This document shows positions 17,369 to 33,711 of a stretch of 64,000 bases of DNA, piece after piece. The notes below the pieces were generated by a model. It searched no databases. It worked only from the letters and a program-made list of their open reading frames with translations, and had not been told where the DNA came from. The stretch is from a virus. Lineage: Duplodnaviria > Heunggongvirae > Uroviricota > Caudoviricetes. A program made the translations under genes and the position numbers. The stretch lies in IMG/VR virus record IMGVR_UViG_3300044535_000502. One strand, given 5' to 3'. Position 1 is the stretch's first letter, and each line of letters starts with the position of its first letter.

Positions 17369-18722
17369 TGAAGACTTTACCAGAAAAACAATACCTTTCA
17401 TTCAAGAGGAATACTTCTCTGATAACGTAGAGAAACTTGTATTCAATGAAGTTCGTGAGTTTCTGGACAAATACAAGAATTTGCCGACACATGAAGCATT
17501 GATTATTAATCTCACTGAGGGTAAGAATCATACCGAAGAGCAGGTTCGTGGCGCCATTGAGTTACTGAATGAAATTCATGAGCAACGTAATGAAGAAACC
17601 AACATTGATTGGTTGACTGACCAGACAGAAAAGTTTTGTCAGGACAAAGCAATCTACAATGCTATCATGGAATCTGTAACGATTCTTGATGATAAGAAAA
17701 GCACCAAAGGCAAAGGTGAGATTCCCAAGATTCTTGCTGATGCATTGGGTGTATCATTTGACCAGAACGTTGGTCATGACTACATCAGTGATTATGAAAG
17801 TCGTTTTGAATTCTATCACAGGAAAGAAGAACGTGTTCCGTTTGATCTGGATTACTTCAACAAAATCACCAAGGGTGGTTTGCCTAACAAGACACTGAAT
17901 ATTGCACTTGCTGGTACCGGTGTTGGTAAGAGTTTGTTCATGTGTCACGTTGCTGCTGGTTGTATCTCGGCTGGCACCGATGTGTTGTACATCACCATGG
18001 AAATGTCTGAGGAAAAGATTGCAGAACGAATCGATGCGAATCTGTTGAATATTGCAATCAATGATCTCCACGTTATCAGTAAAGATGAATATGTTCGCAG
18101 ATTCAAAGCTGTTCAGAACAAAGCACAAGGTAAGTTAGTCATCAAAGAGTATCCAACTGCGGCTGCTGGATCAATGCACTTCCGTTCACTGTTGAACGAA
18201 TTGCACCTGAAAAAGAACTTTCGACCAAAGATCATCTTTATCGACTATCTGAACATCTGCTGTTCCTCTAGAATGAAGATGGGTGCAAGTGTAAACTCAT
18301 ACACATACATCAAAGCTATTGCTGAAGAGTTGCGCGGCCTTGCAGTTGAATTCAACGTGCCTATCGTTTCTGCAACACAGACAACACGAAGTGGTTTCAG
18401 CAACTCAGACGTTGGCCTTGAAGATACCTCAGAATCATTTGGTTTGCCTGCAACTGCTGACTTTATGTTCGCATTGATCAGTACAGAAGAATTGCACCAA
18501 CTGAATCAAATCATGGTGAAACAACTCAAGAATCGATACAGTGATCCTAACGAGAATAAGAAATTCGTGATTGGTGTTGACAAATCCAAGATGAGGCTGT
18601 ATGATGTTGAGGATATTGCACAGAACATCATAGATTCTGGTCAAGTTGATGACAAGCCTATCAATACCTTTGGTAATCGTGAGCGTAAATTCAACTCAAA
18701 GTTCGAAGGTGTTCGTGTATAA
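17325..18722 (+). CDS. 41: replicative DNA helicase (T4 gp41 homolog, DnaB-like)
   Basis: Walker A motif LAGTGVGKS, ITMEMSEEKIAERIDANLL, and the C-terminus match T4 gp41. 465 aa. Confidence 0.95.
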   Translation: MNRLEKSILKSLIYNEDFTRKTIPFIQEEYFSDNVEKLVFNEVREFLDKYKNLPTHEALIINLTEGKNHTEEQVRGAIELLNEIHEQRNEETNIDWLTDQTEKFCQDKAIYNAIMESVTILDDKKSTKGKGEIPKILADALGVSFDQNVGHDYISDYESRFEFYHRKEERVPFDLDYFNKITKGGLPNKTLNIALAGTGVGKSLFMCHVAAGCISAGTDVLYITMEMSEEKIAERIDANLLNIAINDLHVISKDEYVRRFKAVQNKAQGKLVIKEYPTAAAGSMHFRSLLNELHLKKNFRPKIIFIDYLNICCSSRMKMGASVNSYTYIKAIAEELRGLAVEFNVPIVSATQTTRSGFSNSDVGLEDTSESFGLPATADFMFALISTEELHQLNQIMVKQLKNRYSDPNENKKFVIGVDKSKMRLYDVEDIAQNIIDSGQVDDKPINTFGNRERKFNSKFEGVRV

Positions 18723-18725
18723 ATA
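18718..18725 (+). promoter_or_regulatory. T4-type late promoter TATAAATA
   Basis: Exact TATAAATA match overlapping the gene 41 stop codon, 20 nt upstream of the next ORF. Confidence 0.5.
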
Positions 18726-18745: not shown

Positions 18746-19495
18746 ATGGCCGCTCAACAAGGCTTCCAATACGAAATAAATGCCGCTAATGTCTTGAAAC
18801 CTATGGGTCTTGTGCCTAAAAGTTTTAAGCCAGCGGGAGCAGGACATGATCAACCAGATTTGATGCTTGAACATAAGAAAGACAAAGCTGGTTGTGAATT
18901 GAAAATCACGGCAGCGTCCGCTGGTTCCCTTGTTTTGAAATATGATGCGAAAGATAAAAAAAGTCCCTGGAAATTTGGCAATGTCAGTGAAGATGATGCT
19001 GAAAAGTTCTTTATTAAGAATCTAGCTGAAGAAGTTGGATTATTCAAAAGACTTAAAGCTGAGTGGAAAGAAATTCCTTTCAAGAGAGATAAAGATCCAT
19101 TATGGGAAGCCACTGCAGGTAAACTATCTCCTCAAAAGAGATATGAAAGGGATAGAGATACTTTTCAAGATATTCGTGGTGAGATTAGTGCAAAAGAAAT
19201 TGAAGATTATTACAACAAAAAAGATACTTACTATGTAAATGTTGGCACTCACGGTTTCTACTTAATGGGCTCAAAAAATCCCTTAAAGCTGAAAGACGTT
19301 CCTCGCTTCGGTACTTCTGCAAAAGCAACTTATAGAGCCAGGGTTCAATATAAAGGTAGCGGCAATTATCAGTTCACTTTTGAAATGCAATTTTCTATAC
19401 CATCAAGCAAAAAATCACCATTCAACATTGCTCCAGTTGATGGCAAAAGTGTCACAATTATCAAAAAAGATTTAAGTTTAGGGTGTTTTACGTAA
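18746..19495 (+). CDS. hypothetical protein (late-expressed?)
   Basis: 249 aa. The start was chosen at MAAQQG, which has a GGAG ribosome-binding site 6 nt upstream. No recognisable motif. Confidence 0.4.
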   Translation: MAAQQGFQYEINAANVLKPMGLVPKSFKPAGAGHDQPDLMLEHKKDKAGCELKITAASAGSLVLKYDAKDKKSPWKFGNVSEDDAEKFFIKNLAEEVGLFKRLKAEWKEIPFKRDKDPLWEATAGKLSPQKRYERDRDTFQDIRGEISAKEIEDYYNKKDTYYVNVGTHGFYLMGSKNPLKLKDVPRFGTSAKATYRARVQYKGSGNYQFTFEMQFSIPSSKKSPFNIAPVDGKSVTIIKKDLSLGCFT

Positions 19496-20727
19496 TGAAA
19501 TTCAAAGAATTCCTAACAGAGTCCTCAAAAGAAGGCAAGAACGTTCACCTAGAGCATATCGAGGAAGAAGTTCTAAATCGCGGTGTAGCTGGTACGAGAG
19601 ATGCAATCAACTTTTTGCGATCACTCAGAGACATGCTTGCTGGCAATTCAGACGGCAAGGTAAACATTACCACAAAATGGGACGGTGCACCTGCTGTATT
19701 TGCTGGCACTAATCCAGAGAATGGTAAGTTCTTTGTAGCCACAAAAGGCATCTTCAACAAAGATGCAAAGCTGAACTACACCGATGAAGATATTGACAGA
19801 AATCATCCAGGTGAAGGCCTGAATAAGAAACTGAAGGTTGCACTAGCATACTTGCCTAAGATTGGTATCGATGGCATTCTGCAAGGCGACATGATGTTTG
19901 CTAAAGGTGATATCAAGAAAGCAACGATTGATGGTGTCAAGTATGTGACATTTCAACCAAACACAATCGTGTATGCGGTTCCTGAAGATTCTGCACTAGC
20001 TAAGTCCATGTTGACAGCACAAATGGGTATTGTGTTTCATACGGCATACACAGGAAAGACAATCGCAGATTTGAAGTCTTCATTCAACATCGATATTGGT
20101 AGAATGAAAGCAACTAAGGATGTTTGGTTCCGTGATGCATATTTCGTTGACGCATCTGGTACAGTCACATTTACCGAAAAAGAGACTAAAGAAATCACAG
20201 CTATTTTATCTCAAGCAGGATCCCTGTTCCAAAGAACCAGTAGCATGACCCTGAATCGTATTGCTACCTCTGAGATATTCAATGTTCAGATCAAAACATA
20301 CAACAACACGAAAGTTCGTTCCGGTGAACACATCAAAGATACAACGGAACATGCGAAAGGACTGTTGAAATGGATTGAAGACAAGCTGAACAAAGAGATT
20401 ATTGCCGCTAAAAGAGAAGACACTAAACTCAAGCGTCAAGCTGAAAAGAATGAAATCATGCGATTCTATCGAAGCAACTTTGCCGAGCTTGTTAAGATTT
20501 TTGATATCATGAATATGATCGTTGATTCCAAGAATATCATTATCAAAAAGTTACAACAGATGCGTCAAGTTACTGGTGCATTCTTACGTACAGATGATGG
20601 ATTTAAGGTCACGAATCCAGAAGGCTTTGTTGCTGTTGATCGACTAAAAGGTAATGCCGTCAAGTTGGTTGATAGACTTGAATTCAGTCATGCAAACTTC
20701 ACCGCACAGAAAGCGTGGGACAAATAA
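19495..20727 (+). CDS. putative RNA ligase (Rnl1/RnlA-like nucleotidyltransferase, KxDG motif)
   Basis: TTKWDGAPAV resembles T4 Rnl1 motif I (TKEDGSL). The downstream ATKGIF resembles KSKGSI. 410 aa. TAATG overlap with the upstream gene. Confidence 0.45.
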   Translation: MKFKEFLTESSKEGKNVHLEHIEEEVLNRGVAGTRDAINFLRSLRDMLAGNSDGKVNITTKWDGAPAVFAGTNPENGKFFVATKGIFNKDAKLNYTDEDIDRNHPGEGLNKKLKVALAYLPKIGIDGILQGDMMFAKGDIKKATIDGVKYVTFQPNTIVYAVPEDSALAKSMLTAQMGIVFHTAYTGKTIADLKSSFNIDIGRMKATKDVWFRDAYFVDASGTVTFTEKETKEITAILSQAGSLFQRTSSMTLNRIATSEIFNVQIKTYNNTKVRSGEHIKDTTEHAKGLLKWIEDKLNKEIIAAKREDTKLKRQAEKNEIMRFYRSNFAELVKIFDIMNMIVDSKNIIIKKLQQMRQVTGAFLRTDDGFKVTNPEGFVAVDRLKGNAVKLVDRLEFSHANFTAQKAWDK

Positions 20728-21032
20728 TGCAGTCATTCAAAGAACTGGTGAAAGAAGCATCTTATGCTGGTAACATCGGCATTATGGAACTTATCAAATT
20801 CAAGCAAAAAGCTACACCTGAACAGAAAAAGAAATTTGATGATCATGTGAAGAACAAGCGAACAAAGGATGCTTGGGATATGGTCCAGAAAGTCACTGGA
20901 GTTCAGCTACATAAAAGTGTGCATGAAGAAAAGAAGTCTCCTAATCCAGACATTCTGCCACCAGCTGGCGCAGGGCAAGAGGGCACAGACTTGCTAGTCA
21001 AGCGATACAAACGAGATACTCCAGGTCAGTAA
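20727..21032 (+). CDS. hypothetical basic protein
   Basis: 101 aa and Lys-rich. TAATG coupling to the upstream gene. Confidence 0.35.
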   Translation: MQSFKELVKEASYAGNIGIMELIKFKQKATPEQKKKFDDHVKNKRTKDAWDMVQKVTGVQLHKSVHEEKKSPNPDILPPAGAGQEGTDLLVKRYKRDTPGQ

Positions 21033-21048
21033 CTAACTCAATTATATT

Positions 21049-21777
21049 ATGAACCCATTGATCACAGTAATTACACCAACAACAGGAACTGCTCAATTAG
21101 CTGACGCAGTTCGGTCTGTTGATAATCAAACATACAAGAACATACAGCATCTAATCGTTGTTGATGGAGTTGAGCATTATGAAAATGCACTAGATTCCAT
21201 TGTCGGATCACGATATGCTAGTATACTCACATTACCATATAACACAGGTCATAGCCAATACAATGGTCATCGTATCTATGGTGCTATGACATTTATTGCT
21301 GAGGGCGAATACCTGTGCTTTCTAGACCAAGACAATTGGTACGATGATAATCACATTGAATCGCTAGTTAACCAACTCACAAGAGGTAATGATTGGGCAT
21401 ACTCATTACGCAAAATCGTTGATCAGGATGGCAACTACATTTGTAATGATGACTGTGAATCACTTGGTAAGTGGCAATCGGTGATCGGTGACAATTTTGT
21501 TGATGTGAACTGTTTCATGATACCGAAGATGGCCGCACTAGAATTTGCTCCATATTGGTATCGTAGAGCTAGACATCCTAACGATCAACCTGAAGTTGAT
21601 AGAATTCTTTCGGCATTTATGATGGCCAAGTCGAAAACATTTGACACGAATGGTCAATATACTGTAAACTATAGGGTGGCGAGTCGCGCAGACTCTGTAC
21701 AGGACTCATTCTTTATTCGCGGTAATAATGCGATGCAACAGCATTTGAAAGGAAACTATCCATGGCGAAAGATTTAA
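21049..21777 (+). CDS. glycosyltransferase family 2
   Basis: The N-terminus VITPTTGTAQLADAVRSVDNQTYKNIQHLIVVDG carries the typical GT2 signature, and a DQD (DxD) motif is present. Confidence 0.6.
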   Translation: MNPLITVITPTTGTAQLADAVRSVDNQTYKNIQHLIVVDGVEHYENALDSIVGSRYASILTLPYNTGHSQYNGHRIYGAMTFIAEGEYLCFLDQDNWYDDNHIESLVNQLTRGNDWAYSLRKIVDQDGNYICNDDCESLGKWQSVIGDNFVDVNCFMIPKMAALEFAPYWYRRARHPNDQPEVDRILSAFMMAKSKTFDTNGQYTVNYRVASRADSVQDSFFIRGNNAMQQHLKGNYPWRKI

Positions 21778-22646
21778 TAATTGGTGCATTTAGTAACTAC
21801 AGCGACTTCAACGTTGTCAAGCCGTGGATTCATTCCATCAAAGAAACTGGCTTCGATGGTGATATTGTACTGATTGCAATTGATGCACCGAAAAGTATTG
21901 TGTTAGAGATTGAAGACGCTGGTGTGACTGTTGTTGAGCATCCAAAGCAAGGCAACATGATGATTCACATGATGCGCTTCCTATACATCTACGATTTCCT
22001 GAAAAAGTACCATAACAAATATCGCTATGTCATCACTACAGATGTTCGTGATGTGATATTTCAGAGCAATCCTAGCTTGTATCTACACAATCTATATGGT
22101 AGCTACAAAGGTATCGTAGCACAATCGGAAGCAATCCAGATTCAGCATGAGCGATGGAATCGTGAAAACATCATCAAAAACTTTGGTCAATACTTCTATG
22201 AGGATATCAAAGAACATGAAGTATTCAACGTGGGCATCCTAGCGGGCACAACAGAATACATCAAGGACCTGTGCTTTGCACTATTTCAAATGTCTAGTAA
22301 TCGTCCCGACTGGGTTGCTGATCAAGCTGCATATAATATGTTGCTGAGTTTCAAGCCATGGAACGAGGTGGCGACATGTCTTCCACTGATGGATGGCTGG
22401 GCATTGAATGCACATGTGACAAATAAACCAGACCAGATGGACGAGTTTGGTCCATATTTACTTGAGGATCGTCCATACATGGAAGATGGTGTTGTTAAGA
22501 ACGCCGATGGTGAGCCTTTCGTTATTGTGCATCAGTACGACCGAGTGCCTGAGTGGACAAAATACTTCTATGATAAGTATGATGTGAAGATTACAACTGA
22601 AACTGATACTGGGTCATCTCCTAAGTATTTTACTATTACTACATGA
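21762..22646 (+). CDS. putative nucleotide-sugar-dependent glycosyltransferase (GT-A-like)
   Basis: 294 aa. The pattern IIGAFSNYSDFNVVKPWIHS...YVITTDVRDVIFQSNP is typical of GT-A-fold transferases. Confidence 0.35.
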   Translation: MAKDLIIGAFSNYSDFNVVKPWIHSIKETGFDGDIVLIAIDAPKSIVLEIEDAGVTVVEHPKQGNMMIHMMRFLYIYDFLKKYHNKYRYVITTDVRDVIFQSNPSLYLHNLYGSYKGIVAQSEAIQIQHERWNRENIIKNFGQYFYEDIKEHEVFNVGILAGTTEYIKDLCFALFQMSSNRPDWVADQAAYNMLLSFKPWNEVATCLPLMDGWALNAHVTNKPDQMDEFGPYLLEDRPYMEDGVVKNADGEPFVIVHQYDRVPEWTKYFYDKYDVKITTETDTGSSPKYFTITT

Positions 22647-22655
22647 AAGAATATT

Positions 22656-23210
22656 ATGAGCGATTACATTGTAATGAATACTAATCCTGCCAATGAGTGG
22701 ATTTGTTCAGGTAAAGGACTTCTGCTACTATTGCGTGATAAGGGACCACAGGTTGGTTTGGAGATCGGCTGTGCTGAAGGCCACACAACACACTATTTGC
22801 TGAAAAACTTACCTGAGTTGGTGTTGCATGGTATTGATCCGTATGTCAACTATGAAGACTGGAATGGTAGATTCCTGACAGATCGTGTTGACATGCACAA
22901 ACAGATTCTGGATTACTGTGCTGAGTTCGGTGATAGATTCGTCATGCATCGTGATTTCTCGGATAATATGGTCAATCATTTTGAAGATGACTCACTCGAT
23001 TTCATATTTATTGATGGAATACACACATACGAACAAGTCACGATTGACTGTGAGAATTACTTCAGTAAAGTAAAATCTGGTGGTGTTTTTGCAGGTCACG
23101 ATTACAATGTCATCGAAGGTGTAAATCGTGCGGTAAATGAATTTGCAGCCAAGCACGGCGCAGAAGTACAAACTTGTGCAAACGATGTATGGTACTGGAT
23201 CAAGAAATGA
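22656..23210 (+). CDS. class I SAM-dependent methyltransferase (TylF/CmcI-like O-methyltransferase family)
   Basis: Motif I GLEIGCAEGHTT. The downstream DFIFIDGIHTYE...GGVFAGHDY pattern is typical of this family. Confidence 0.55.
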   Translation: MSDYIVMNTNPANEWICSGKGLLLLLRDKGPQVGLEIGCAEGHTTHYLLKNLPELVLHGIDPYVNYEDWNGRFLTDRVDMHKQILDYCAEFGDRFVMHRDFSDNMVNHFEDDSLDFIFIDGIHTYEQVTIDCENYFSKVKSGGVFAGHDYNVIEGVNRAVNEFAAKHGAEVQTCANDVWYWIKK

Positions 23211-24004
23211 GTGAGACTGTCACAATTGTAACTGCGTTCTTTGACATTGGTAGGTCAAATTGGGAAGGTACTCTAAATGGTCAGCAACTGCCACACTACC
23301 TAAAGCGTGACACACAGACATATCTGGACAGATTCAAGCGACTAACTGAGCTAAAGAATCCTATCGTTGTTTTCACCGAAAGCAAATTCATTGACACCAT
23401 CAAGAGTTATCGTGACGATATCATCTGTGTTGTTGCTGATAACATTTTTGAAGACAACAACCAGCTACTGAGTCGTATCGCACACATTCAAAGACGCCCT
23501 GAGTTTATTGCGCATCTGAATCAACCAACGATGCCTGAGTATTGGTCGCCACATTATGTGTTCATAAATTACGCCAAATCTTTGTTTGTCAATACAGCAA
23601 TTAAGATGGGTCATGTGTCAACAGGCACGGCTGCTTGGTTAGACTTTGGATATGTGCGTGAAGATACATTCTGTCCTGCTGGAATGGAATGGAAGTTCAA
23701 CACACAGAATCTAATCAATCTGTTCTGTTTCTCCAACCCTGACGAAGCTGAACCTATATTCAATATCGTCAAGACAAATAATGTGTACGTCCAAGGCTGT
23801 CACATCGTTGCACCAGTTGAAAAGTGGAAGCAAATGGCAACACTCATGACACGGGCAATAATGAACTACATTGAAGTGGATTTGATTGATGATGATCAGT
23901 CCATGTTGCTCATGTCATACAAAATGTCACCGCACGACTTCAAAATCAATTATGTCAATCCTGACTATTGGTTTGTCATATTCAGAGACTTCAATCACAC
24001 ATGA
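23207..24004 (+). CDS. hypothetical protein, possibly involved in glycan or LPS modification
   Basis: 265 aa. ATGA overlap with the methyltransferase. Carries a TVTIVTAFFDIGRSNW motif (HtrL/YibB-like?). Confidence 0.3.
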   Translation: MSETVTIVTAFFDIGRSNWEGTLNGQQLPHYLKRDTQTYLDRFKRLTELKNPIVVFTESKFIDTIKSYRDDIICVVADNIFEDNNQLLSRIAHIQRRPEFIAHLNQPTMPEYWSPHYVFINYAKSLFVNTAIKMGHVSTGTAAWLDFGYVREDTFCPAGMEWKFNTQNLINLFCFSNPDEAEPIFNIVKTNNVYVQGCHIVAPVEKWKQMATLMTRAIMNYIEVDLIDDDQSMLLMSYKMSPHDFKINYVNPDYWFVIFRDFNHT

Positions 24005-24660
24005 ATGTATTCATCGTAACTTCCGCTTTGCTCACACAAGCTGGCGTTTTCAATACAATACAGAGGTTCAACGACACACTGGACACACTGAAATCTATTC
24101 GTGAGAAAGATCCAACAGCTATGATCTTTCTCGCTGATATCTCAGTTGCGCCACTTGGTGGAATGATAGATGAACTGCAAGAATATTGTAAGGTTGTGAG
24201 TTTCAATGATCATCATGCAGTCAAGATGTTTTCAACTCATGGCATGAAGAGTCATGGTGAAACAGTCATTCTTATGGAAATGCTGAATTTCATAAAGAGG
24301 CAAGGAATCGTGTGTGATAGAATATTCAAGTTGTCTGGTAGATATGTCCTTGATGATGGCTTTGACATTTCATATTATACAGACAAGCAAGGACATTATG
24401 TGTTTAAGCGCCGCAATGAAACATGGATGAATCCTGTTGTTTCTGGTGCAACACATTGCTTGGACACAAGACTGTTCTCACTGTGCTCCAGTCTAGCTGA
24501 TGATTATTTTGAAATATTACAGAAAAATCTCAATATTCTTGGACAATTGGACACAGAACATGTGCATTTTTTGCACATTCCAAAAGATAAGCTGGTTGAG
24601 GTTGACCGTGTGTATTGCACAGGAATGATCGCCAGGACTGGAGAATTAGTCAGAGATTGA
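24001..24660 (+). CDS. hypothetical protein, weak paralog of the preceding gene
   Basis: 219 aa. ATGA overlap. Its N-terminus MNVFIVTSALL resembles the neighbouring gene's TVTIVTAFF. Confidence 0.3.
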   Translation: MNVFIVTSALLTQAGVFNTIQRFNDTLDTLKSIREKDPTAMIFLADISVAPLGGMIDELQEYCKVVSFNDHHAVKMFSTHGMKSHGETVILMEMLNFIKRQGIVCDRIFKLSGRYVLDDGFDISYYTDKQGHYVFKRRNETWMNPVVSGATHCLDTRLFSLCSSLADDYFEILQKNLNILGQLDTEHVHFLHIPKDKLVEVDRVYCTGMIARTGELVRD

Positions 24661-24714: not shown

Positions 24715-27246
24715 ATGAAGTTCAGACAATATTTAGAAGAAACAACAGAAAAACATGCGGTCCTTGCGTTCGGACGCATGAATCCACCAACAACCGGTCA
24801 TGCAAAACTGGTTGATAAAGTCAAAGATGTTGCTAAGTCTGTGAGAGGAACACACCACGTGGTTCTATCGCATTCACAGGACGCTGAGAAGAATCCACTC
24901 TCAGGTGAGCAAAAAGTCAAACACGCACAACGATATTTTCCTGACACGAATATCACAACCTCCAGTAAAGAACATCCAAACTTTCTGGCTCAAGCATCAA
25001 AACTCCACAAAGCTGGCGCTACACATTTGCACATGGTTGCAGGATCCGATAGAACTGGTGAGTATGAGAAGATTTTACACAAATACAATGGCGTAAAAGG
25101 TACGCATGGATACTTCAAGTTTCGTGGTATTCACGTACACTCCGCTGGTGAGCGTGATCCTGATGCTGAGGGTGTATCTGGTATGTCTGCATCCAAGATG
25201 CGTAGCCATGCATCAAAAGGCAACTTCAAAGAATTCAAAAAAGGCATTCCAAGTCACGTAGCGCCAGAACACGCTAAAGAATTGTATAATGATGTGCGCA
25301 AGGGAATGCAAGTCAAAGAAGATTTCCGATCACAAATTCAGATGATCCTATCTGAGGGTGTCCACGATAAAGGCATCTTCAAGGCTGTGTTTCTATCGGG
25401 CGGTCCAGGCTCAGGTAAAGACTATGTGTTGGATAACACACTTGCTGGTCATGGCTTGATTGAAATCAACTCAGACAAAGCACTTGAGTTTCTGATGGAC
25501 AAGAATAATCTGGACAAGAAAATGCCAGAGACTGAAGCTGATGCACGGACACTTGTTCGCGGTAAAGCAAAAGACATGACAGAGTTGAAGCAGAAGCTGG
25601 CGCTGTTGGGTCGCAACGGCATCATTATCAATGGCACAGGCGATGATCCCGCAAAGTATGCCAAGATAAAGAAAAACTTAGAAGAAATTGGCTATGAAAC
25701 TTCTATGGTTGCCGTTGTTACACGCGATGAAATTTCTGCACAGAGAAACGTTGAGCGTGGGCAAAGAGGTGGTCGTACAGTTCCTGAGAATATTCGTAAA
25801 GAAAAGTGGGACGCAGTAAACAATTCACGCCCAGAGATGGCTAAGTTGTTTGGCAACAGCTATATTGAATTTGATAACTCTGAAGACTTGCGCACCGCAG
25901 CACCAGAAGTGGTCAAAGCCAAGAAAGAAGAGATGAACAACATCTTCAAGACTGTCCAAAAGTTTGTTCAAGCACCACCTAAGAATGAGCAAGCTAAGGC
26001 TTGGGTTGCTGGTGAACTACAGAAGAAAGACACCTTGCCTGTTCCTAAGAAAGGCACGGAACTGTCTATTCCACACTCCGCTGAGGGCGAAAACAAAGCA
26101 ACTGATGAAGCTAGACGCCTTGGGCTACAATACTATGGCTATGGCCGATATGGTAAGAATGGTAAAGTCACACATCACACAGTTCACGGAACTTTGGTGC
26201 AGGATCCAACACACGCTGAACAGCAAAAGATGATTAAGAAAACTGCTGAAGTTCCTATGAGTGGAGCTAGTAGCCAAAAGCCTGTGCCCAAGAAACCAGT
26301 CAAAGAGTCTATCAACGAAGATTTTCAGAATCTTTTTGAGGCCGTTTCAGTTACTTTCAAAGCTGATACCCCAGAAGAGCTACAAAAAGCAATGAAGATG
26401 CTGACTGGCAATGGAGATGCAGAAGTGGAAGAGCAGGAAGTTGAGGAGCACGTGGACCACACAGAAATGTCTGATTCTGGTGCATACAATCTATTGACGC
26501 TCGGAAAATCCATGTTTGTCTCCGAAAGTATCAGTGGTGAAAGAACTGCCGTAAAAGATGGAGCTACATATATTGCATCAGGCAACAAGCCTAAAGTATA
26601 TGCAATACGAAACAATGCTGCTAAAGACGCACACACCAAAGGTGGTGAAGTCGTTAAGACAGACAAAGGTTACATAGTTAAATTAAAGGAGAATGTAAAT
26701 GTTGAAATTCGTGAAAAGTTTCTTTGTGAAGAGCAAACCGCCAGTGGAACCGGAGCCACAACCATTGCCGAAAGTGGAAGCACCAGCCGTAGTGCCGGAG
26801 TCAGCACCGGAGCCACAACCATTGCCGAAAGTGGAAGTTCCGGTCGTAGTAGTACCAGAGCCATTACCGAAAGTGGAAGTGGAAGTTCCAGTGGTAACAG
26901 TGCAGGAACAAGTGCCAGTGCCAGTGCCGAAGCCAGCACCAAAAACATCCACGAAGCCAGCCGCTTTAAAGGCAAGCTCACCCTCTCGCAAGCCAAAAAC
27001 ACGTTCAAAGAAGCCATCGACAAAGGCATAGAAACTGGCATGTCCATGGCTGCTGGTGGCGAAGGCATTGGGCGTGACATGGGCGAAATCAATGACAAGA
27101 ATGGCAAAGTGAATCCTCTGAAAAAGAAACCTGTTGCTGAAATGGGTGGGGATTCAACCACAGCGTCAATTGGTGCACAAAAACAAGATGAACTGGCTAA
27201 ACATGGCATATCACTTAGCACGTTCAGAGGAAAGAATTACCTATGA
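24715..27246 (+). CDS. multidomain protein: N-terminal cytidylyl/adenylyl-transferase-like domain, central P-loop kinase domain, and a C-terminal Ser/Thr/Gly-rich repeat region
   Basis: MNPPTTGH is an HxGH-type motif and GMSASKMR an ISSTxxR-like motif, together indicating the nucleotidyltransferase alpha/beta fold. GGPGSGKD is a Walker A motif with a downstream lid. The C-terminus carries TTIAESGS repeats. A GGAG ribosome-binding site is present. 843 aa. Confidence 0.5.
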   Translation: MKFRQYLEETTEKHAVLAFGRMNPPTTGHAKLVDKVKDVAKSVRGTHHVVLSHSQDAEKNPLSGEQKVKHAQRYFPDTNITTSSKEHPNFLAQASKLHKAGATHLHMVAGSDRTGEYEKILHKYNGVKGTHGYFKFRGIHVHSAGERDPDAEGVSGMSASKMRSHASKGNFKEFKKGIPSHVAPEHAKELYNDVRKGMQVKEDFRSQIQMILSEGVHDKGIFKAVFLSGGPGSGKDYVLDNTLAGHGLIEINSDKALEFLMDKNNLDKKMPETEADARTLVRGKAKDMTELKQKLALLGRNGIIINGTGDDPAKYAKIKKNLEEIGYETSMVAVVTRDEISAQRNVERGQRGGRTVPENIRKEKWDAVNNSRPEMAKLFGNSYIEFDNSEDLRTAAPEVVKAKKEEMNNIFKTVQKFVQAPPKNEQAKAWVAGELQKKDTLPVPKKGTELSIPHSAEGENKATDEARRLGLQYYGYGRYGKNGKVTHHTVHGTLVQDPTHAEQQKMIKKTAEVPMSGASSQKPVPKKPVKESINEDFQNLFEAVSVTFKADTPEELQKAMKMLTGNGDAEVEEQEVEEHVDHTEMSDSGAYNLLTLGKSMFVSESISGERTAVKDGATYIASGNKPKVYAIRNNAAKDAHTKGGEVVKTDKGYIVKLKENVNVEIREKFLCEEQTASGTGATTIAESGSTSRSAGVSTGATTIAESGSSGRSSTRAITESGSGSSSGNSAGTSASASAEASTKNIHEASRFKGKLTLSQAKNTFKEAIDKGIETGMSMAAGGEGIGRDMGEINDKNGKVNPLKKKPVAEMGGDSTTASIGAQKQDELAKHGISLSTFRGKNYL
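26745..26945 (+). repeat. GC-rich tandem repeat (~57-bp unit, about 3 copies) inside the 24715..27246 CDS
   Basis: ggagccacaaccattgccgaaagtggaag recurs at about 26751, 26808 and 26857. It leaves long open frames on both strands. Confidence 0.7.
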
Positions 27247-27620
27247 AAAACTATAAAGATTTTGTCACTGAAGCTGGGCGCTGCTGGAAAGGCTATAAAC
27301 CTGTTCCAGGTAAGAAAGCATACTCACCCGATTCTTGTATGAAAGAAGAAACTGTAGTGGAAGCCGCAGTTGATGCTAAAGGACTAAAAAGCTCTACTGG
27401 TGGTCTAACTCAAAAGGGTCGTGACTACTACAACAGAAAAGATGGCGGCAATCTAAAAGCACCGGTTACAACACCACCATCAAAATTGACACCGGGCAGT
27501 AAAGCTGCTAACCGTCGCAAGTCATTCTGTGCTAGAATGGGTGGAGTGGAAGGTCCGATGAAGAAACCTAACGGAGAGCCGTCCCGTAAAGCTCTCGCAC
27601 TAAGAAAATGGAATTGCTAA
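27243..27620 (+). CDS. hypothetical basic protein
   Basis: 125 aa, Lys/Arg/Gly-rich. ATGA overlap with the upstream gene. Confidence 0.35.
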   Translation: MKNYKDFVTEAGRCWKGYKPVPGKKAYSPDSCMKEETVVEAAVDAKGLKSSTGGLTQKGRDYYNRKDGGNLKAPVTTPPSKLTPGSKAANRRKSFCARMGGVEGPMKKPNGEPSRKALALRKWNC

Positions 27621-29273
27621 GTGGCACAATTTAATAAAGATATTGGTGCGCTAGATCCGAAGATTTCATCTCGATATGAGGTGATGATGTTGGCTAATAA
27701 CGCTAATGGTGATATCGTTTCTCTCTCAAATCCTTTACCAGTAACTCTTGGTTCAGAAAATATCACAATTACTGGAAACGTGAATTTTGTGGATACGGTT
27801 AATGTCGCAAGTTCGCCAGAAAACCCAGTTCATACACACATTACGGAAGTTGGCACAAGTGGTTTATTGACTGTATCTTATATGCCAATAGGCGGAAATG
27901 TTAACATTGGCACAGACGGCATCGTTAGTTTATCGGCAAACACATTGTCAGCATTGGAAAATACCACAGTTACTATCAGCGGCACTCCTACAGTTAACAT
28001 TGGCACTATGCCTGAGGTAGAGATTAAAAACGACAGCGGCAATCCTATACCTATTAGTGGTAATGTAAATGCTACCCTAACTGGCACCAGTGCTGTAACT
28101 TTGGGGGCAGCGGCCACTGATGCGTTTGGACGGTTGCGTGTAAGTAATCCATATACACTGTTCGATGGTGGTCTGCGTTACTTTGACAATACATACAAGT
28201 GGGACCAAGTGGACACAGGCTCTGTCACTTCCTCTTTCTTACCTAACGAAAGTTCTATTCTAATGAGCGCTACAGGAGCAGGATCGGCCATTCGTCAGAC
28301 TAAACAGGTATTTTCCTACCAGCCTGGTAAGAGTCTATTGGTTCTGTTGACCTTTGTTATGAACGCTCCTACCGCTGGCGTTACACAACGAGCAGGCTAT
28401 TTCGGAGCACAGAACGGCATCTACTTTGAAGTAGCAGACACCACAAAAAATCTAGTTATTAGAAAATACACTTCTGGTTCAGTAGATGACACTACGGAAA
28501 AATTCCCTCAAAGTTTGTGGAATGGTGATAAATTAGATGGAACTGGAGCCAGCGGAATAACATTAGATGTAACCAAAGCACAAATCTTCTGGACAGACAT
28601 AGAATGGTTAGGTGTAGGGACAGTTCGTTGTGGATTTGTGATTAACGGACAGTTCATCGTTTGTCACAGTTTTCATCATGCCAACATATTAAACAAGGTC
28701 TATATGACCAGTGCTACGTTACCCCTACGATATGAATTGATCAGCACTGGACCCGCAGCCTCAATGAGAGCAATCTGTAGTACAGTTATGTCGGAAGGCG
28801 GTTATAGTAATCGCAGTTTTACCCGTGCCATAGGAACAGCACTAACTGGTAAGGACCTCAGCAATACCGTGTACAGACCATTAGTCTGTTTACGCATGAA
28901 GTCAACAGCCCCGGACTCTATTGTAGTGCCCACTGCGTTCGATGTATTTGGACTACAACAAGCAGCCTTTTCATATCGCATTATTCTCAATCCCACATTG
29001 ACTGATGCTAATTGGACCAGTGCTGACACAGACAGTACAGTAGAGTATGACATCTCTGCTACAGCATTATCTGGCGGCAAAGTAATAACGCAAGGTGTAT
29101 TTGTAGGATCTAATAAGGGCGGATCCGCTCAAGTTACTAGCAACGAAATAGACTTTAGTCAACAGTTAGGTAGAACTATAGCAGGTGTATCAGACATATG
29201 GTGTTTGGCAGCAATAGCCACTACCAACAACGATGATGCTGTGGGCATTGTAAACTGGCAGGAACATAACTAA
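27621..29273 (+). CDS. large beta-rich protein, probably a virion structural protein or adhesin (possible GTG start)
   Basis: 550 aa. The N-terminus has short Thr/Gly/Asn/Val repeats (NVNIGTDG.., TVNIGTMP..), which suggest a beta-helix. The C-terminus looks jelly-roll-like. Confidence 0.35.
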   Translation: MAQFNKDIGALDPKISSRYEVMMLANNANGDIVSLSNPLPVTLGSENITITGNVNFVDTVNVASSPENPVHTHITEVGTSGLLTVSYMPIGGNVNIGTDGIVSLSANTLSALENTTVTISGTPTVNIGTMPEVEIKNDSGNPIPISGNVNATLTGTSAVTLGAAATDAFGRLRVSNPYTLFDGGLRYFDNTYKWDQVDTGSVTSSFLPNESSILMSATGAGSAIRQTKQVFSYQPGKSLLVLLTFVMNAPTAGVTQRAGYFGAQNGIYFEVADTTKNLVIRKYTSGSVDDTTEKFPQSLWNGDKLDGTGASGITLDVTKAQIFWTDIEWLGVGTVRCGFVINGQFIVCHSFHHANILNKVYMTSATLPLRYELISTGPAASMRAICSTVMSEGGYSNRSFTRAIGTALTGKDLSNTVYRPLVCLRMKSTAPDSIVVPTAFDVFGLQQAAFSYRIILNPTLTDANWTSADTDSTVEYDISATALSGGKVITQGVFVGSNKGGSAQVTSNEIDFSQQLGRTIAGVSDIWCLAAIATTNNDDAVGIVNWQEHN

Positions 29274-29299: not shown

Positions 29300-31093
29300 A
29301 TGTTCAACGATAAAATTCTAAAATCAGTGGCCGAAGCAGTGAAAGCTGTTGTGGACGAAGCACTGAAAGGCGATCAACACAAGATCGATAAAAACAAAAA
29401 CGGCAAAGTTGATGCACACGACTTCAAGTTGTTGCGCAAAGAGGAAGCCAAGAAGCCTGCTAGCCCATTTGACTGGAAGAATACTCCACGCCAAACTGCT
29501 GAAAAAGGTGAGAAGACTGGCCACGATGCTAAGAAAATCTCCACAGGCACTGTGTACACTAAGAAGTATACAAAAGAAGAAGCATCTCAAGAAGAGTTCA
29601 ACAAAGAGATCAAGATAGCACAAGACAAGTCCATTGGCAAGAGCAAAGCTGAAGTTGCAAAGCCTGCTGTGCAAGCTGTCAAGCAAGAATCTGTTGAACA
29701 ACTAGATGAACTGAGCAAGAAGACTCTTGGTAAATATATTAAGGCTGCCCGAGATAATGTGAGAAATAGATCATACATGATAGGACGTGATGTTTCTAAA
29801 CTTAAACCGTCCCCACAACATGTCCGTAAAGTTAAAAATTCAACTACTGGTATACAAAGAGCGGTAGATCGTTTGACTAAAGAAGAAGTTGAACAAATTG
29901 ATGAGTTAAGTAAGAAGACACTCGGTTCATACATCAATAAAGCTGTAAGCAGTGTAGCAAATAAAGATTATAATATTGGACGTCTGCACTTTGGCGACCA
30001 ACCTGAAAAAAAAGCTGATGTGAAACAGCAAGCCCGCGAAATAAAAAAAGATGAACGTGTGATTAAAAAGCGAAATCGCGGCGTTGATCGCGCTGTTAAA
30101 CGTTTGACTAGAGAAGAATATGAAAACTTAGATGAACTTGAATTTACTGTTGAAGATGTTGAAAACTTCATGCAAACTGAAGAATTTGAACAACTAGATG
30201 AACTGAGCAAGAAGACTCTTGGTAAATATATCAATAAAGCCCAAGGCAGGGTGAGGTATGCCGCACACGAGGTAGGTCATCATCTTACTACACTGGAACG
30301 AAATCGTAGGACGCCAGGAAACTTCCGTAGACTTAAAAATTCAACTACTGGTATACAAAGAGCGGTAGATCGTTTGACTAAAGAAGAAGTTGAACAAATT
30401 GATGAGTTAAGTAAGAAGACACTCGGTTCATACATCAATAAAGCTGTAAGAAGTCAAGCAGATAGAGAGCATAATATTGCAAGCGTGGCGTATGGTGCCC
30501 AACCTGAAAAAAAAGCTGATCAGGTTCGTAACGCCCGCGAAATGAAAGCAGATCAGCGTGTGATTAAAAAGCGAGACCGCGGCGTTAAAAAAGCTGTTAA
30601 ACGTTTGACTAGAGAAGAATATGAAAACTTAGATGAACTTGAATTTACTGTTGAAGATGTTGAAAACTTCATGCAAACTGAAGAATTTGAACAACTAGAT
30701 GAACTAAAGAAGTCTACACTAGCATCCTATGTCAAGAAAGCATCTCATGATGTTGCACACAAGGGCGCATTGACTCGTCAACATGCTAATGATTCAGAAG
30801 CTGCACGTAAAGATTCACGCTACAATGATGCTAGAAAGAGCATGGAGAAAGCAGATAAAACTTTTGCTAAGTCTTGGAAGCGCCGCGAAAACATGGGCAA
30901 AGCTGTTGATCGTTTAGCTAAGGAAGAAGTTGAGCAAATTGAAGAGCGTTCATTGACCACCGCTGAAAAGGCTGCATTGGAAAAGAATGTCAAAGGCATG
31001 AAGAAGAACATTGCTGGCTTCAAAGAGCGTTATGGCAAAGATGCTAAGTCTGTTATGTACGCTACGGCCACCAAGCAAGCCAAGGGAGAGTAA
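29300..31093 (+). CDS. Lys/Glu-rich internally repeated protein (EEVEQIDELSKKTLGSYINKA motif repeated five or more times)
   Basis: 597 aa. A strong ribosome-binding site AAAGGAAA is present. Two ~167-aa tandem units are nearly identical. Confidence 0.6.
   Translation: MFNDKILKSVAEAVKAVVDEALKGDQHKIDKNKNGKVDAHDFKLLRKEEAKKPASPFDWKNTPRQTAEKGEKTGHDAKKISTGTVYTKKYTKEEASQEEFNKEIKIAQDKSIGKSKAEVAKPAVQAVKQESVEQLDELSKKTLGKYIKAARDNVRNRSYMIGRDVSKLKPSPQHVRKVKNSTTGIQRAVDRLTKEEVEQIDELSKKTLGSYINKAVSSVANKDYNIGRLHFGDQPEKKADVKQQAREIKKDERVIKKRNRGVDRAVKRLTREEYENLDELEFTVEDVENFMQTEEFEQLDELSKKTLGKYINKAQGRVRYAAHEVGHHLTTLERNRRTPGNFRRLKNSTTGIQRAVDRLTKEEVEQIDELSKKTLGSYINKAVRSQADREHNIASVAYGAQPEKKADQVRNAREMKADQRVIKKRDRGVKKAVKRLTREEYENLDELEFTVEDVENFMQTEEFEQLDELKKSTLASYVKKASHDVAHKGALTRQHANDSEAARKDSRYNDARKSMEKADKTFAKSWKRRENMGKAVDRLAKEEVEQIEERSLTTAEKAALEKNVKGMKKNIAGFKERYGKDAKSVMYATATKQAKGE
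29836..30835 (+). repeat. ~500-bp tandem duplication (2 copies) within the 29300..31093 CDS
   Basis: Segments at about 29841-29950 and 30341-30450 are near-identical, as are 30003-30210 and 30503-30710. Confidence 0.7.
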
Positions 31094-31094
31094 T

Positions 31095-32762
31095 ATGAGA
31101 AGTTTCAAGCAGATTGCAAGTCTTGTCCGCGGTGAGGACATTTTGGAAGAGGGTAAAAAGTCTCTTGGAACAGGATGGATGCTGAAGGCTGATCCGAAGT
31201 TGGGAAAAGCTGTCAAAGATAAGCTCGACCTTGCTAAAAAACGTCAGGCAACTTATGGTGATAAATCTGCTGGCAAATCCATCAAAGAAGAAGAAACCAT
31301 TGAAGAAGCTGGTCTGTGGGACAACATTCATGCCAAGCGTGAAAGAATCAAAAAAGGTTCAGGTGAACGTATGCGTAAGCCTGGCTCAGAGGGTGCACCA
31401 TCCGAGAAGGATTTGAAAAACTCACAGACTAATGAAGAGGTTGAACTGGCCGAAGCTGACGCCAAAGACTATCACTCAGTACATGTCAATGGTCGTCACT
31501 GGAAAACATTTGATACCAAGTCTCATGCCGAGAACGTTGCAAAGAAAGTCAAAGGCGCTACAGTACATAAGTATGATGCTGAGAGACTGCAACAAAACTA
31601 TGGTGCAAAATCTGCGGCTAGAAATGCGGCACGTGGTAAGCAGTGGGATGAGTCTGTTGATGTTGAGCAACTAGATGAAATGCCTGGTGCTAACATGGAT
31701 ACCCGTGCTGTGCATCAACATCTGAAGAAGCGTGGTTGGAAACTTTCGCGCACATCAGGTAGCCACGATGTATACACACATCCAGAAGCAAAGCACCACA
31801 TTCCAGTTCCACGTCATCGTCAATTAAAGGCACCATTGGTCAAAGGTATTCTGAAACAAGCTGAAATCAATGAGCAAGCTGAATCGGATACCACCGAAAA
31901 AACTGAGATGGCCCAAACGCAACTACACTTCATCAAGTATGCCGCTGAAGAAATTCTTGAGTTCATTGAGATGGGTGGTGAAATTGAAGAGTGGTATCAG
32001 AACAAACTATCTAAAGTTCAAAGTGATGTAGAATCACTACACTCATACATTGAAGGTGAGTCTCGCCGTACAGGGATGAAGGAAGAAGTTGAGCAGATTG
32101 ATGAGTTGTCAAAGAAAACTCTTGGCTCCTATGTCAATAAAGCAATGGACAGCGCAAGAGAATTGCCTGGCACCGGCACAAACGCTGAGGCGAGTAAGAA
32201 GACAAAACGATACGCTGCTGTTTCTGCTGCTGCATATCGCACACAAGGTCTTGCACCAAGAAAAGGTACTGATATGTTTAAGAAGTACAAAGCTGAGAGT
32301 GTTGTGGCGGAAGAAGTTGGTCAAACTAGCAACTCCAACGAGAATCCGGACGCTGGTCGTTTCACATCCGGACCAGCTAAGAAGCCTGCGAAGCCTACAC
32401 CTATCATTACTGCTGAACAAACTGCAACAGACTTGGGTAAAGAGCGTTATGAGGTTCCATTTGATGGTCCTTATACCAAAAATACAACAAAAGTGACAAC
32501 AGACAAATCTGGCGCAAAACACACAGCAATGTCTAGAGTTAAGCACCTCGCAAAGACTGCTGCACGTAAACAAGCAGGTCTAAAAGAAGAGCAAGAGCCG
32601 GAAGATTCTTTTGAGAAAACAAGCACACCTGCGAAACGTTCACTGTCTAAGACTGCTGGCATCGTAAAAGATTTGGCTAAGAATTCTAAGTCATCTAGCA
32701 AAGAAAAAGCTGATACATTCCAAGCTGAACCTGAGCTATCATCACAGATCATCAAAACATAA
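31095..32762 (+). CDS. Lys/Glu-rich protein with an embedded HicA-toxin-like (YcfA) domain and one copy of the EEVEQIDELSKKTLGSY repeat
   Basis: Residues ~201-257 read KKRGWKLSRTSGSHDVYTHPEAKHHIPVPRHRQLKAPLVKGILKQAEI, which matches the HicA signature (GSH..HP..VP.H..L..g.L..IlkqA). The start was chosen at MRSFKQ, which has an AAGGGAGAG ribosome-binding site. Confidence 0.55.
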   Translation: MRSFKQIASLVRGEDILEEGKKSLGTGWMLKADPKLGKAVKDKLDLAKKRQATYGDKSAGKSIKEEETIEEAGLWDNIHAKRERIKKGSGERMRKPGSEGAPSEKDLKNSQTNEEVELAEADAKDYHSVHVNGRHWKTFDTKSHAENVAKKVKGATVHKYDAERLQQNYGAKSAARNAARGKQWDESVDVEQLDEMPGANMDTRAVHQHLKKRGWKLSRTSGSHDVYTHPEAKHHIPVPRHRQLKAPLVKGILKQAEINEQAESDTTEKTEMAQTQLHFIKYAAEEILEFIEMGGEIEEWYQNKLSKVQSDVESLHSYIEGESRRTGMKEEVEQIDELSKKTLGSYVNKAMDSARELPGTGTNAEASKKTKRYAAVSAAAYRTQGLAPRKGTDMFKKYKAESVVAEEVGQTSNSNENPDAGRFTSGPAKKPAKPTPIITAEQTATDLGKERYEVPFDGPYTKNTTKVTTDKSGAKHTAMSRVKHLAKTAARKQAGLKEEQEPEDSFEKTSTPAKRSLSKTAGIVKDLAKNSKSSSKEKADTFQAEPELSSQIIKT

Positions 32763-32788: not shown

Positions 32789-33349
32789 ATGACACTATGG
32801 GCAAAATCAGATTCAAGCAACGCGGCACCAAAACACGCAGGCGTTGCAGCTACTAACAATGCAAACGGAGCAACACTGTTTGGTAGCACAACTATCGGTG
32901 CATTCACACCTAGACAAGCTGTTGGCATTTTCGGTGTTGACAGTACTGAACAGGGCGTTGCGGCTAATCCAAAAGGAGCACACGCAGGTTGGGTTGTTGT
33001 AAAGCAAGGCACAGGTCCTGTTGCAACACTTACAGCGAATGCAAGTTCATACTCACCTGACGGTAACGTATTCTTGACATTCACTGGCGGTGGCACAGGT
33101 AACACTTCCGCTAACGCACGTATCGTTACAAACGGTGCAAAGTTGATTACTGGTATTACACTGACAACTGGTGGTAACTACTTGGCTGCACCAACAATCG
33201 GCGCGGTGCCAAACTCTAACGTATCAATTACAATCACCATGGGTGGTCGTGTCGGGCGCGAACACACAGAGACTCTTGTTGCTATGGGCAGCATCGGTCA
33301 AGCAGGTGTTGCTGACGCTTCCGATGACACAGTGTTTGCAGACAGCTAA
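32789..33349 (+). CDS. Gly/Thr/Ala-rich protein, probably structural
   Basis: 186 aa. A strong AAGGAG ribosome-binding site is present. Low-complexity G/T/A/N composition. Confidence 0.4.
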   Translation: MTLWAKSDSSNAAPKHAGVAATNNANGATLFGSTTIGAFTPRQAVGIFGVDSTEQGVAANPKGAHAGWVVVKQGTGPVATLTANASSYSPDGNVFLTFTGGGTGNTSANARIVTNGAKLITGITLTTGGNYLAAPTIGAVPNSNVSITITMGGRVGREHTETLVAMGSIGQAGVADASDDTVFADS

Positions 33350-33711
33350 TGAATTTCAAAGAATTCATCACGGAGTCAATGGATGGTGGAGATGAAGTCT
33401 CCATTGACTCAGTAACGCAGGGTAAACTCAATCTGTTGTTGATGGTTGAGCTAACTCAGCCTGTCTTGACACCAGAATCGGGTATCGCAAAGATTCGTAA
33501 AATACTTTATCTTGAGGGAATCGCATTTGAGTCCCTTTATGATTTGAACACTGAAGGTGAAGAATTAGCAACACACTTATCTGGCGATAGTTTTCTGTAT
33601 ATTCTGTATTATCCAACGGATGATGGATACTATGATTTTTATGCTGAGATTATGGATGAAAGTGGTGTAGAGCAAGCAATGTCTGAACTGGAAGGGGAAG
33701 ACGAAAGCTAA
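33349..33711 (+). CDS. hypothetical acidic protein
   Basis: 120 aa, highly acidic. TAATG coupling. Confidence 0.35.
   Translation: MNFKEFITESMDGGDEVSIDSVTQGKLNLLLMVELTQPVLTPESGIAKIRKILYLEGIAFESLYDLNTEGEELATHLSGDSFLYILYYPTDDGYYDFYAEIMDESGVEQAMSELEGEDES

Follow-up and report, generated by a model that had tools for sequence, protein, structure and literature searches.

Results

A transferase-kinase fusion gene in a variable island

The stretch analysed here (the window: 64,000 nucleotides of the IMG/VR virus record IMGVR_UViG_3300044535_000502, Caudoviricetes) is part of a T4-like marine myovirus of the Kyanoviridae type, with Methylophilales phage Melnitz and Pelagibacter phage HTVC008M, both Kyanoviridae, as its nearest cultured relatives. 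Its T4-like genes include those for a CobS-like protein, the gp45 sliding clamp, the gp44 clamp loader, a gp47-like phosphoesterase, gp43 DNA polymerase, UvsX, gp41 helicase, gp61 primase, thymidylate synthase, and ribonucleotide reductase. The gene under study lies in a variable island bounded by the gp41 helicase and gp61 primase genes, and its open reading frame (ORF; 24715..27246 on the + strand, Table 1) encodes a fusion protein of 843 amino acids (aa), 91.6 kDa and pI 9.1, in which a short leader is followed by a nucleotidyltransferase domain, a P-loop kinase domain, and a modular tail. The two catalytic centres of the protein are each conserved, and the gene is linked to an upstream gene for a DUF6267 protein. 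The whole protein has more than 4,900 metagenomic homologues; all are labelled hypothetical, and many lie on contigs of 140-175 kb. The three motifs on which the original prediction of function had been built, MNPPTTGH (aa 22-29), GMSASKMR (aa 156-163), and GGPGSGKD (aa 229-236), were all recovered, with little or no variation in their residues among 17 to 31 homologues.

The nucleotidyltransferase domain

The N-terminal domain (residues ~10-208) was matched by the PHROG "cytidyltransferase" families (1e-65 and 2e-43). Its TxGH motif, T26-T-G28-H29, is encoded at 24790-24801, and G28 and H29 are invariant in pelagimyophage and cyanophage homologues, as is M157-S-A-S-K-M-R163 within the second, ISSTxxR-type motif, G156-MSASKM-R163 (25180-25203). 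With the Pfam model CTP_transf_like (PF01467), the window protein scored 17.8 bits against a cut-off of 21, while the Melnitz homologue passed with 27.4 bits; PF01467 is also assigned to P0072 in the precomputed annotation table. An AlphaFold2 model of aa 1-440 had a mean predicted local distance difference test (pLDDT) score of 82, and Foldseek placed the modelled N-domain best on the NadD structures 8aih, 3mmx, and 2qtm (E 5e-5 to 3e-4, target TM-score 0.55-0.59). The domain is a divergent member of the HxGH superfamily; the PHROG matches and the fit of the model to NadD structures bear out the PPAT/NMNAT/cytidylyltransferase fold that had been claimed for it.

A rival explanation is dinucleotide metabolism of the nicotinamide adenine dinucleotide (NAD) type, which I consider unlikely. 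Here, the transferase would be a nicotinamide mononucleotide (NMN) or nicotinic acid mononucleotide (NaMN) adenylyltransferase, and the kinase would either supply the mononucleotide, following the logic of NadR and Nrk, or phosphorylate the dinucleotide, as in AvrRxo1 (3'-NADP), so that NAD would be restored or diverted as infection begins, for instance to counter defences that deplete it. The NadD structures being the best matches speaks for it, as does the size of the domain in the model, where ~200 aa with a C-terminal helical subdomain are nearer to NadD/NMNAT than to the shorter PPAT/GCT enzymes. Moreover, cyanophage homologues of the transferase have been labelled NMNAT by some authors (PMC12801897; PMC10665884), and zeta-family kinases are able to act on NAD (PMC5491322; PMC5087710). 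However, searches of solved structures with the transferase profile returned only insignificant PPAT and NMNAT matches, and hhalign against E. coli NadD, CoaD, NadR, RibF, and HldE gave probabilities of 0.1-19% with no specificity signal (PPAT 18.8%, NadR 7%, NadD 0.7%, transferase domain of HldE 0.1%). The NadR equivalog model TIGR01526 matched only aa 17-84 with 14.6 bits against a cut-off of 341.15, and the kinase had only the P-loop in common with the ribosylnicotinamide kinase domain of NadR (20 hhalign columns, 12% probability). No NAD-salvage gene was seen among those window genes that were scanned against the profile libraries (~35 of ~90 ORFs), and the pairing and fusion with DUF6267 would go unexplained. 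The NadR-like enzyme that was one of two functions originally proposed is thus not supported for the kinase, whose likeness is confined to the P-loop, and the likeness of the transferase is one of fold.

The neighbourhoods of distant transferase homologues in the jumbo phages RaK2 and Paride were uninformative; in RaK2, an rnlA gene lies 5.5 kb from the transferase homologue.

The kinase domain

The kinase domain (residues ~209-436) had Zeta_toxin (PF06414) as its top Pfam family (48.8 bits, cut-off 22.3), and AAA_33 matched as well. It carries the Walker A motif GGPGSGKD (25399-25422), a catalytic Asp254 (25474-25476) equivalent to zeta Asp67 and T4 Asp35, the sequence G307-T-G-D310 (25633-25644), which is invariant in the clade, and the lid residues R344, R348, and R354 (within 25744-25776); the invariant residues of the domain are K235, D254, T308-G309, R344, R348, and R354. 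A profile of five diverse members matched zeta toxin (1gvn, 3e-10), AK1 (1e-8), T4 Pnk (5e-7), and PezT (2e-6) in the PDB, and the alignment to 1gvn paired INSD with IDND and took in the catalytic Asp and the GTG motif. Against the kinase domain of T4 Pnk, hhalign gave 96% probability (E 3e-9, 143-144 columns), matching the P-loop K235 and pairing Asp254 with T4 Asp35 and Arg348 with T4 Arg126, while only 34 residues were aligned to CoaE. Foldseek matches of the kinase model were Clostridium thermocellum Pnkp, UMP/CMP kinase, mammalian PNKP, a Trl1 kinase, and T4 Pnk. The Pfam and hhalign matches thus place the Walker A motif in a domain of the kinase type, as had been claimed. With these catalytic residues kept, the domain appears from its sequence to be an active phosphotransferase of the zeta/PNK group. 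Two marks of specificity, the GTXR arginine of zeta toxins and Arg38 of T4 Pnk, are lost, and homology leaves the substrate unfixed.

Another alternative is an injected zeta-type toxin, in which the kinase would phosphorylate UDP-N-acetylglucosamine (UDP-GlcNAc) or another UDP-sugar, stall peptidoglycan synthesis and weaken the wall while the phage enters or takes over the cell, with the transferase as an accessory. In its favour, the Zeta_toxin score lies above threshold, the best PDB sequence match (1gvn) includes the catalytic Asp and the GTG motif, a related kinase domain occurs in the MuF-zeta fusion of cyanophage PSS2, and the same role has been proposed for MuF-zeta fusions (PMC5512222). 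What makes it distinctly improbable is the GTXR motif, which zeta toxins require to bind UDP-GlcNAc (PMC6362051): its arginine position is Asp in the whole clade, and Arg or Lys in HTVC008M, Melnitz, and Atu_ph07. In addition, no epsilon- or PezA-type antitoxin family was found among the flanking genes (DUF6321, one unannotated gene, and HtrL_YibB), though divergent antitoxins could escape such a search, and a toxin would leave the link between transferase and DUF6267 unexplained.

A stand-alone homologue of the kinase, Melnitz gp118 (L003 3983-4651), lies beside baseplate and head-completion genes, far from the transferase, and its N-terminus (MKTFAELQE) also resembles the leader described below.

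DUF6267 is an evolutionary partner of the transferase

The partner gene upstream of the sugar genes was assigned to Pfam DUF6267 (5e-111), with its start at the ATG at 19495 as in a 100%-identical database homologue; no mention of DUF6267 was found in the literature. Among phage records, 468 matched DUF6267 and 560 the transferase. The two genes are neighbours in ~470 Kyanoviridae records and adjoin each other in Syn9, Syn1, S-H9-2, S-SZBM1, Melnitz, and HTVC008M; in Synechococcus phage S-PM2d138 DUF6267 and the cytidyltransferase form one polypeptide of 591 aa (L007 3492-5267), a fusion that PHROG 455 models as well. The kinase is a separate gene adjoining the transferase in HTVC008M and lies elsewhere in Melnitz; related kinases are found in the middle of a 778-aa Atu_ph07 protein and fused to MuF in PSS2 gp030, and other uncultured-phage proteins align across both the transferase and kinase domains with 24-40% identity. 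Adjacent or fused, the transferase and DUF6267 are evolutionary partners, and the kinase is in turn a partner of the transferase, fused here and an adjacent gene in HTVC008M. Adjacency in hundreds of records and the fusion in S-PM2 support the tie to a ligase-like gene that had been proposed, and do so more strongly than the sequence of the window could by itself.

Whether that gene deserves to be called an Rnl1-like ligase is less clear. Ligase-like motifs are present in the Rnl1 order I, III, IV, V (K61-W-D-G, Q130-G-D132, E376-G-F-V-A-V, and K390-L-V-D-R), and seven diverse members share an invariant HLEH, K61-x-D-G, Q130-x-D132, E376-G, K390, and R394. Set against T4 Rnl1, the stretches read ITTKWDG/ILTKEDG, NPEGFVAV/NIEGYVAV, and AVKLV/HFKIK. 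No significant sequence or fold match to a ligase was found besides these motifs (hhalign against T4 DNA ligase, 1.5% probability), and a ligase function is best regarded as a motif-level lead.

Cyanomyoviruses have no gp30 ligase (PMC2984593), and DUF6267 was considered as the missing enzyme. This candidate was weakened by Stenotrophomonas phage DLP6, which has a gp30 ligase in addition to DUF6267 and the transferase (PMC5349666).

A capsid-targeting-like leader is shared by five island genes

The internal proteins of T4 begin with MKTYQEFIAE (ipII and ipIII) or MKTFKEF (ipI), and mutational work has established that this capsid-targeting sequence (CTS) depends on positions 4 and 7 for targeting and on positions 8 and 10 for processing (PMC9026906). 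The fusion protein begins with MKFRQYLEE, which resembles the T4 pattern with an offset of one residue (the aromatic F and Y for targeting, the aliphatic L and a Glu for processing). It shares such a leader with DUF6267 (MKFKEFLTE, 19495) and with the island genes starting at 20727, 27243, and 33349 (Table 1). In a ranking of all 695 ATG starts in the window by their score against the T4 sequence, the five island genes took places 1, 3, 5, 6, and 11, the best leader being that of DUF6321, the gene directly 3' of the fusion gene. A pattern derived from the T4 mutational data matched eight starts where 0.26 were expected, and five of the eight were the starts of island genes. Outside these five, no real gene start in the 64 kb carries a CTS-like leader.

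The motif ([LIVM]-x-E) is kept in 114 of 120 homologues of the fusion protein, and a second count of homologues gave 118 of 120. Two cyanophage transferases, S-SZBM1_140 and S-CREM2 gp154, have been detected in virions by mass spectrometry (PMC9146016; PMC10665884), and both bear the same leader (MRFRQFIIEA and MKNFSSFLTEA, respectively). Neither the leader nor this virion association of homologues had figured in the original prediction. In T4, the internal proteins are a diverse group of anti-defence proteins that share only their leader (PMC3012670). On the basis of the leader and of the proteomics on homologues, I infer that the fusion protein is targeted to the capsid and that the prohead protease would remove the leader after Glu9. 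It is probably a head-loaded enzyme that is co-injected with the DNA, as are the T4 internal proteins and Alt.

A small cysteine motif (CWKGYK...G...C) at the N-terminus of DUF6321 recurs in S-SZBM1_139 (L025 6989-8362), which mass spectrometry has likewise placed in the virion, and in the Melnitz transferase, within its tail (L002 7995-9947); the island proteins look like mosaics of mini-modules.

The tail and its repeat

The tail (aa 437-843, ~400 residues) alternates conserved small modules with variable low-complexity linkers, and had no match among isolated phages and none to a Pfam or PHROG family. One module, LGLQYYGYGRYGKNGKVTH (LGLxYxGYGRY...VTH, at ~26110-26199), recurs at the N-terminus of Syn9 gp184. 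A GC-rich 57-bp tandem repeat had been claimed here. What was found is a direct repeat of two 45-nt copies at 26749 and 26806, which are 91% identical and 57 nt apart, with a third degenerate copy (64% identity) 42 nt further on; the Ser/Thr/Gly coding and a moderate rise in GC content (0.52-0.55 against 0.40-0.47 in the remainder of the gene) held up, but there are only two good copies and Tandem Repeats Finder reported no 57-bp array. No part of the family varies more than the Ser/Thr/Gly stretch. Two long ORFs that cross the repeat in other frames, 26670..27221 (-) and 26699..27031 (+), are by-products of it and not genes; one codes for PEPQPLPKVE repeats.

Other genes of the island and its surroundings

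The coordinates of the fusion gene, its parts and the associated genes are collected in Table 1.

Table 1. Positions in the window of the fusion gene, its segments, and linked genes
Feature	Position	Strand	Remark
Whole ORF, fusion protein	24715..27246	+	
N-terminal leader MKFRQYLEE	24715..24741	+	resembles the T4 internal-protein capsid-targeting sequence
HxGH-type (here TxGH) nucleotidyltransferase domain, phage "cytidyltransferase" family	24742..25338	+	
P-loop phosphotransferase domain, Zeta-toxin/PNK type	25339..26022	+	
Clade-specific tail	26023..27243	+	small conserved modules and low-complexity linkers
Imperfect direct repeat coding for a Ser/Thr/Gly-rich stretch	26749..26892	+	
DUF6267 partner gene	19495..20727	+	
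Small ORF with CTS-like leader MQSFKELVKE	20727..21032	+	
Variable sugar/lipopolysaccharide-type island	21049..24660	+	between DUF6267 and the fusion gene
DUF6321 protein, directly 3' of the fusion gene	27243..27620	+	leader MKNYKDFVTE
Small acidic ORF with CTS-like leader MNFKEFITE	33349..33711	+	

The sugar island between DUF6267 and the fusion gene encodes a GT2 and a second glycosyltransferase, a TylF-like Methyltransf_24 protein, HtrL_YibB, and one unannotated protein. In relatives this slot is filled differently (an SDR epimerase, a C-methyltransferase, a HAD hydrolase, a PfkB-like gene, and a LacAB_rpiB isomerase) between flanking genes that do not change, a pattern of a variable cassette at a fixed site. 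A third alternative is a nucleotide-sugar pathway, in which the transferase would activate a sugar phosphate, the kinase would modify the nucleotide-sugar, and both would feed the glycosyltransferases upstream. In this clade the sugar island always parts DUF6267 from the fusion gene, HldE and TagD are HxGH transferases, and zeta toxins act on nucleotide-sugars. However, the transferase is also kept where no such island separates it from DUF6267, as in HTVC008M, Melnitz, and several hundred cyanomyoviruses, and the island content varies in close relatives in which the fusion gene is constant. The hhalign match to the transferase domain of HldE was the weakest of those tested, and a biosynthetic enzyme would be odd as a capsid-targeted protein. 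Such a pathway is very unlikely, and the sugar island is probably not part of the module to which the fusion gene belongs.

The T4 late-promoter-like sequence TATAAATA occurs six times in the window (2.5 expected) and is not found directly upstream of the fusion gene, where TTGACA and TATAAT are spaced by 21 nt. One occurrence, at 18718..18725 (+), lies immediately past the stop of the helicase gene at the entry to the island.

Two genes 3' of the fusion gene, in the replication-gene region, lies the gene for a 550-aa protein (27621..29273, +) that was assigned to PHROG 1645, "virion structural protein" (2e-110). It is followed by that of a 597-aa protein (29300..31093, +) with an internal tandem duplication of ~190 aa and repeated LTKEEVEQIDELSKKTLGSYINKAV and EEYENLDELEFTVEDVENFMQTEEFEQLDEL blocks, whose EEVEQIDELSKKTLGSY module is also found in the next gene. 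A HicA-toxin domain (Pfam 2e-12, aa 206-258) sits inside a 555-aa low-complexity protein (31095..32762, +, with an alternative start at 31011), and two relatives have a HicA-domain homologue in the corresponding position (L022 14615-15970 and L023 14577-15881).

A downstream spanin pair, which the original prediction had likened to the spanin genes beside pseT in T4, was indeed recovered at 34436..34891 and 34888..35154 (+), ~7-8 kb away, with weak PHROG Rz-like matches (E 2e-4 and 5.5e-4). An endolysin gene (35154..35780, +; E 4e-74) follows this spanin-like pair, making up a lysis cluster at 34436..35780. The analogy itself did not survive and is ascribed to an accident of gene order.

Discussion

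The mechanism that I tentatively prefer, doubtful as it remains, is a single pathway acting on the 5' ends of nucleic acids or nucleotides. In such a pathway the kinase would phosphorylate a hydroxyl, with Asp254 as the base and Lys235 together with Arg344, Arg348, and Arg354 holding ATP. To this phosphate the transferase would attach AMP or another nucleoside monophosphate, taken from the triphosphate, much as NMNAT makes NAD from NMN, and DUF6267 would act as a sealing, ligase-type enzyme. With the protein packed into the head beforehand, damage such as cleaved tRNA or mRNA, or nicked DNA, could be healed right at the start of infection in slow-growing hosts. The assignment of substrates is the weakest step of this proposal, and a good part of the probability goes to a function outside all those considered here.

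Several results weigh against it. HxGH transferases are not known to take part in nucleic-acid repair. The second of the two functions originally proposed, a T4 Pnkp-like repair kinase, is sustained by the profile-level match and by K235, D254, and R348, but it lacks two hallmarks of the T4 enzyme. Arg38 of T4 Pnk, which contacts and holds the polynucleotide, is part of a D-x-x-R motif; its position is occupied by L, F, Y, I, or K in five diverse members of the family. Moreover, no 3'-phosphatase (DxDxT) domain was found in the 843 aa by Pfam, PHROG, or NCBIfam, nor was a cyclic phosphodiesterase domain, and zeta toxin equals Pnk as a sequence match of the kinase profile. On the side of DUF6267, hhalign aligned only 19 columns (motifs IV-V) with Rnl1 at 4.7% probability, single-sequence and profile searches of solved structures returned nothing, and the AlphaFold2 model was unusable (pLDDT 51, from 30 homologues of 74-100% identity); since DLP6 holds gp30 too, the protein is not simply a missing replicative ligase. 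As for packaging, three of the eight pattern matches in the window are internal methionines, and the leader of the fusion protein scores only 19 against the T4 sequence, a score for which ~2 starts are expected by chance in the window. The virion mass spectrometry may also catch abundant contaminants (PMC10665884).

A more specific version would make the island a head-packed repair kit that enters the cell together with the genome, in which the NMNAT-fold transferase adenylylates 5'-phosphate ends directly (App-N), the kinase makes those ends, and DUF6267 seals them. This is a long shot; if true, two proteins would divide the steps of ligation, one a non-covalent HxGH enzyme and the other ligase-like, an arrangement not described before.

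The domains as such, the phage "cytidyltransferase" family, the MuF-zeta fusions, and the T4 capsid-targeting sequence were already known. The transferase-kinase fusion, its tie to DUF6267, and a T4-type leader shared by pelagimyophage-like island proteins were not found in the literature searched. Few unexplained genes of marine T4-like phages are as conserved as those for the transferase and DUF6267, which occur in hundreds of genomes of cyanophages and, in metagenomes, in thousands of sequences from SAR11- and OM43-type phages. The fusion also narrows the biochemical search: a kinase and an enzyme that nucleotidylates phosphates, both co-evolving with a ligase-like protein, leave few assays to consider. 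If the T4-like leader does load the capsid, it would explain the presence of "metabolic" enzymes in cyanophage virions, extend the concept of T4 internal proteins to oceanic phages, and provide a simple sequence rule for listing injected effectors, here including the neighbourhood of the HicA domain.

Comparison with known systems

Among the closest known systems are the cyanomyovirus "cytidyltransferases" (T4-like gene cluster 190; PHROG 395/3041; for example Syn9 gp184, S-SZBM1_140, and S-CREM2 gp154), whose transferase domain is homologous with 37-44% identity and shares the same invariant motifs. They occupy the same place after the gp41 helicase and DUF6267, and several have a CTS-like leader, but they carry an SH3-like module or other tails instead of a kinase. 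Other combinations of an HxGH transferase with a P-loop kinase are NadR (NMNAT and ribosylnicotinamide kinase) and CoA synthase (PPAT and dephospho-CoA kinase), in which the two activities serve consecutive steps on the way to a dinucleotide cofactor. The fusion protein resembles them in this arrangement and differs in having no family-level match to either, the common ground being limited to the P-loop of the NadR kinase, the 34 residues of CoaE, and the N-terminal motif of PPAT.

The kinase is a profile-level homologue of that of T4 Pnkp (P-loop, Asp base, and lid Arg), and DUF6267 has Rnl1-like motifs, so that the island recalls the Pnkp and Rnl1 pair of T4. The two systems differ in the HAD 3'-phosphatase and the Arg38 equivalent, both missing here, and in the HxGH transferase, which T4 lacks; moreover, T4 Pnkp and Rnl1 are early cytoplasmic proteins that are not packaged, whereas the fusion protein is predicted to be. 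With Zeta/PezT and AvrRxo1 (PF06414), members of a family that phosphorylates nucleotide-linked substrates such as UDP-sugars and NAD, the kinase shares the Walker A motif, the catalytic Asp, the GTG motif, and the lid arginines. It stands apart from them through the change of the GTXR arginine to Asp, the lack of an antitoxin partner, and the fusion to a transferase.

The MuF-linked polyvalent proteins (Iyer et al., 2017) offer a parallel as virion-delivered multidomain effectors: the same type of kinase is joined to the head protein MuF in PSS2 gp030 (PMC5512222), and a protein with a HicA-toxin domain lies in the same island as the fusion gene. Neither MuF nor a portal domain, nor any other domain known for packaging, is present in the fusion protein itself, and a T4-type leader would take over delivery instead. 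With IPI, IPII, IPIII, and Alt of T4 it has in common a short N-terminal leader pattern that T4 genetics has shown to direct head targeting and cleavage by gp21. As in T4, the proteins sharing the leader are basic and diverse in function, and they occur in a T4-like lineage with a gp21-type protease. The leader is similar and not identical, with its offset of one residue, and packaging and cleavage are predicted here; at 92 kDa, the fusion protein is larger than the T4 internal proteins and comparable to Alt.

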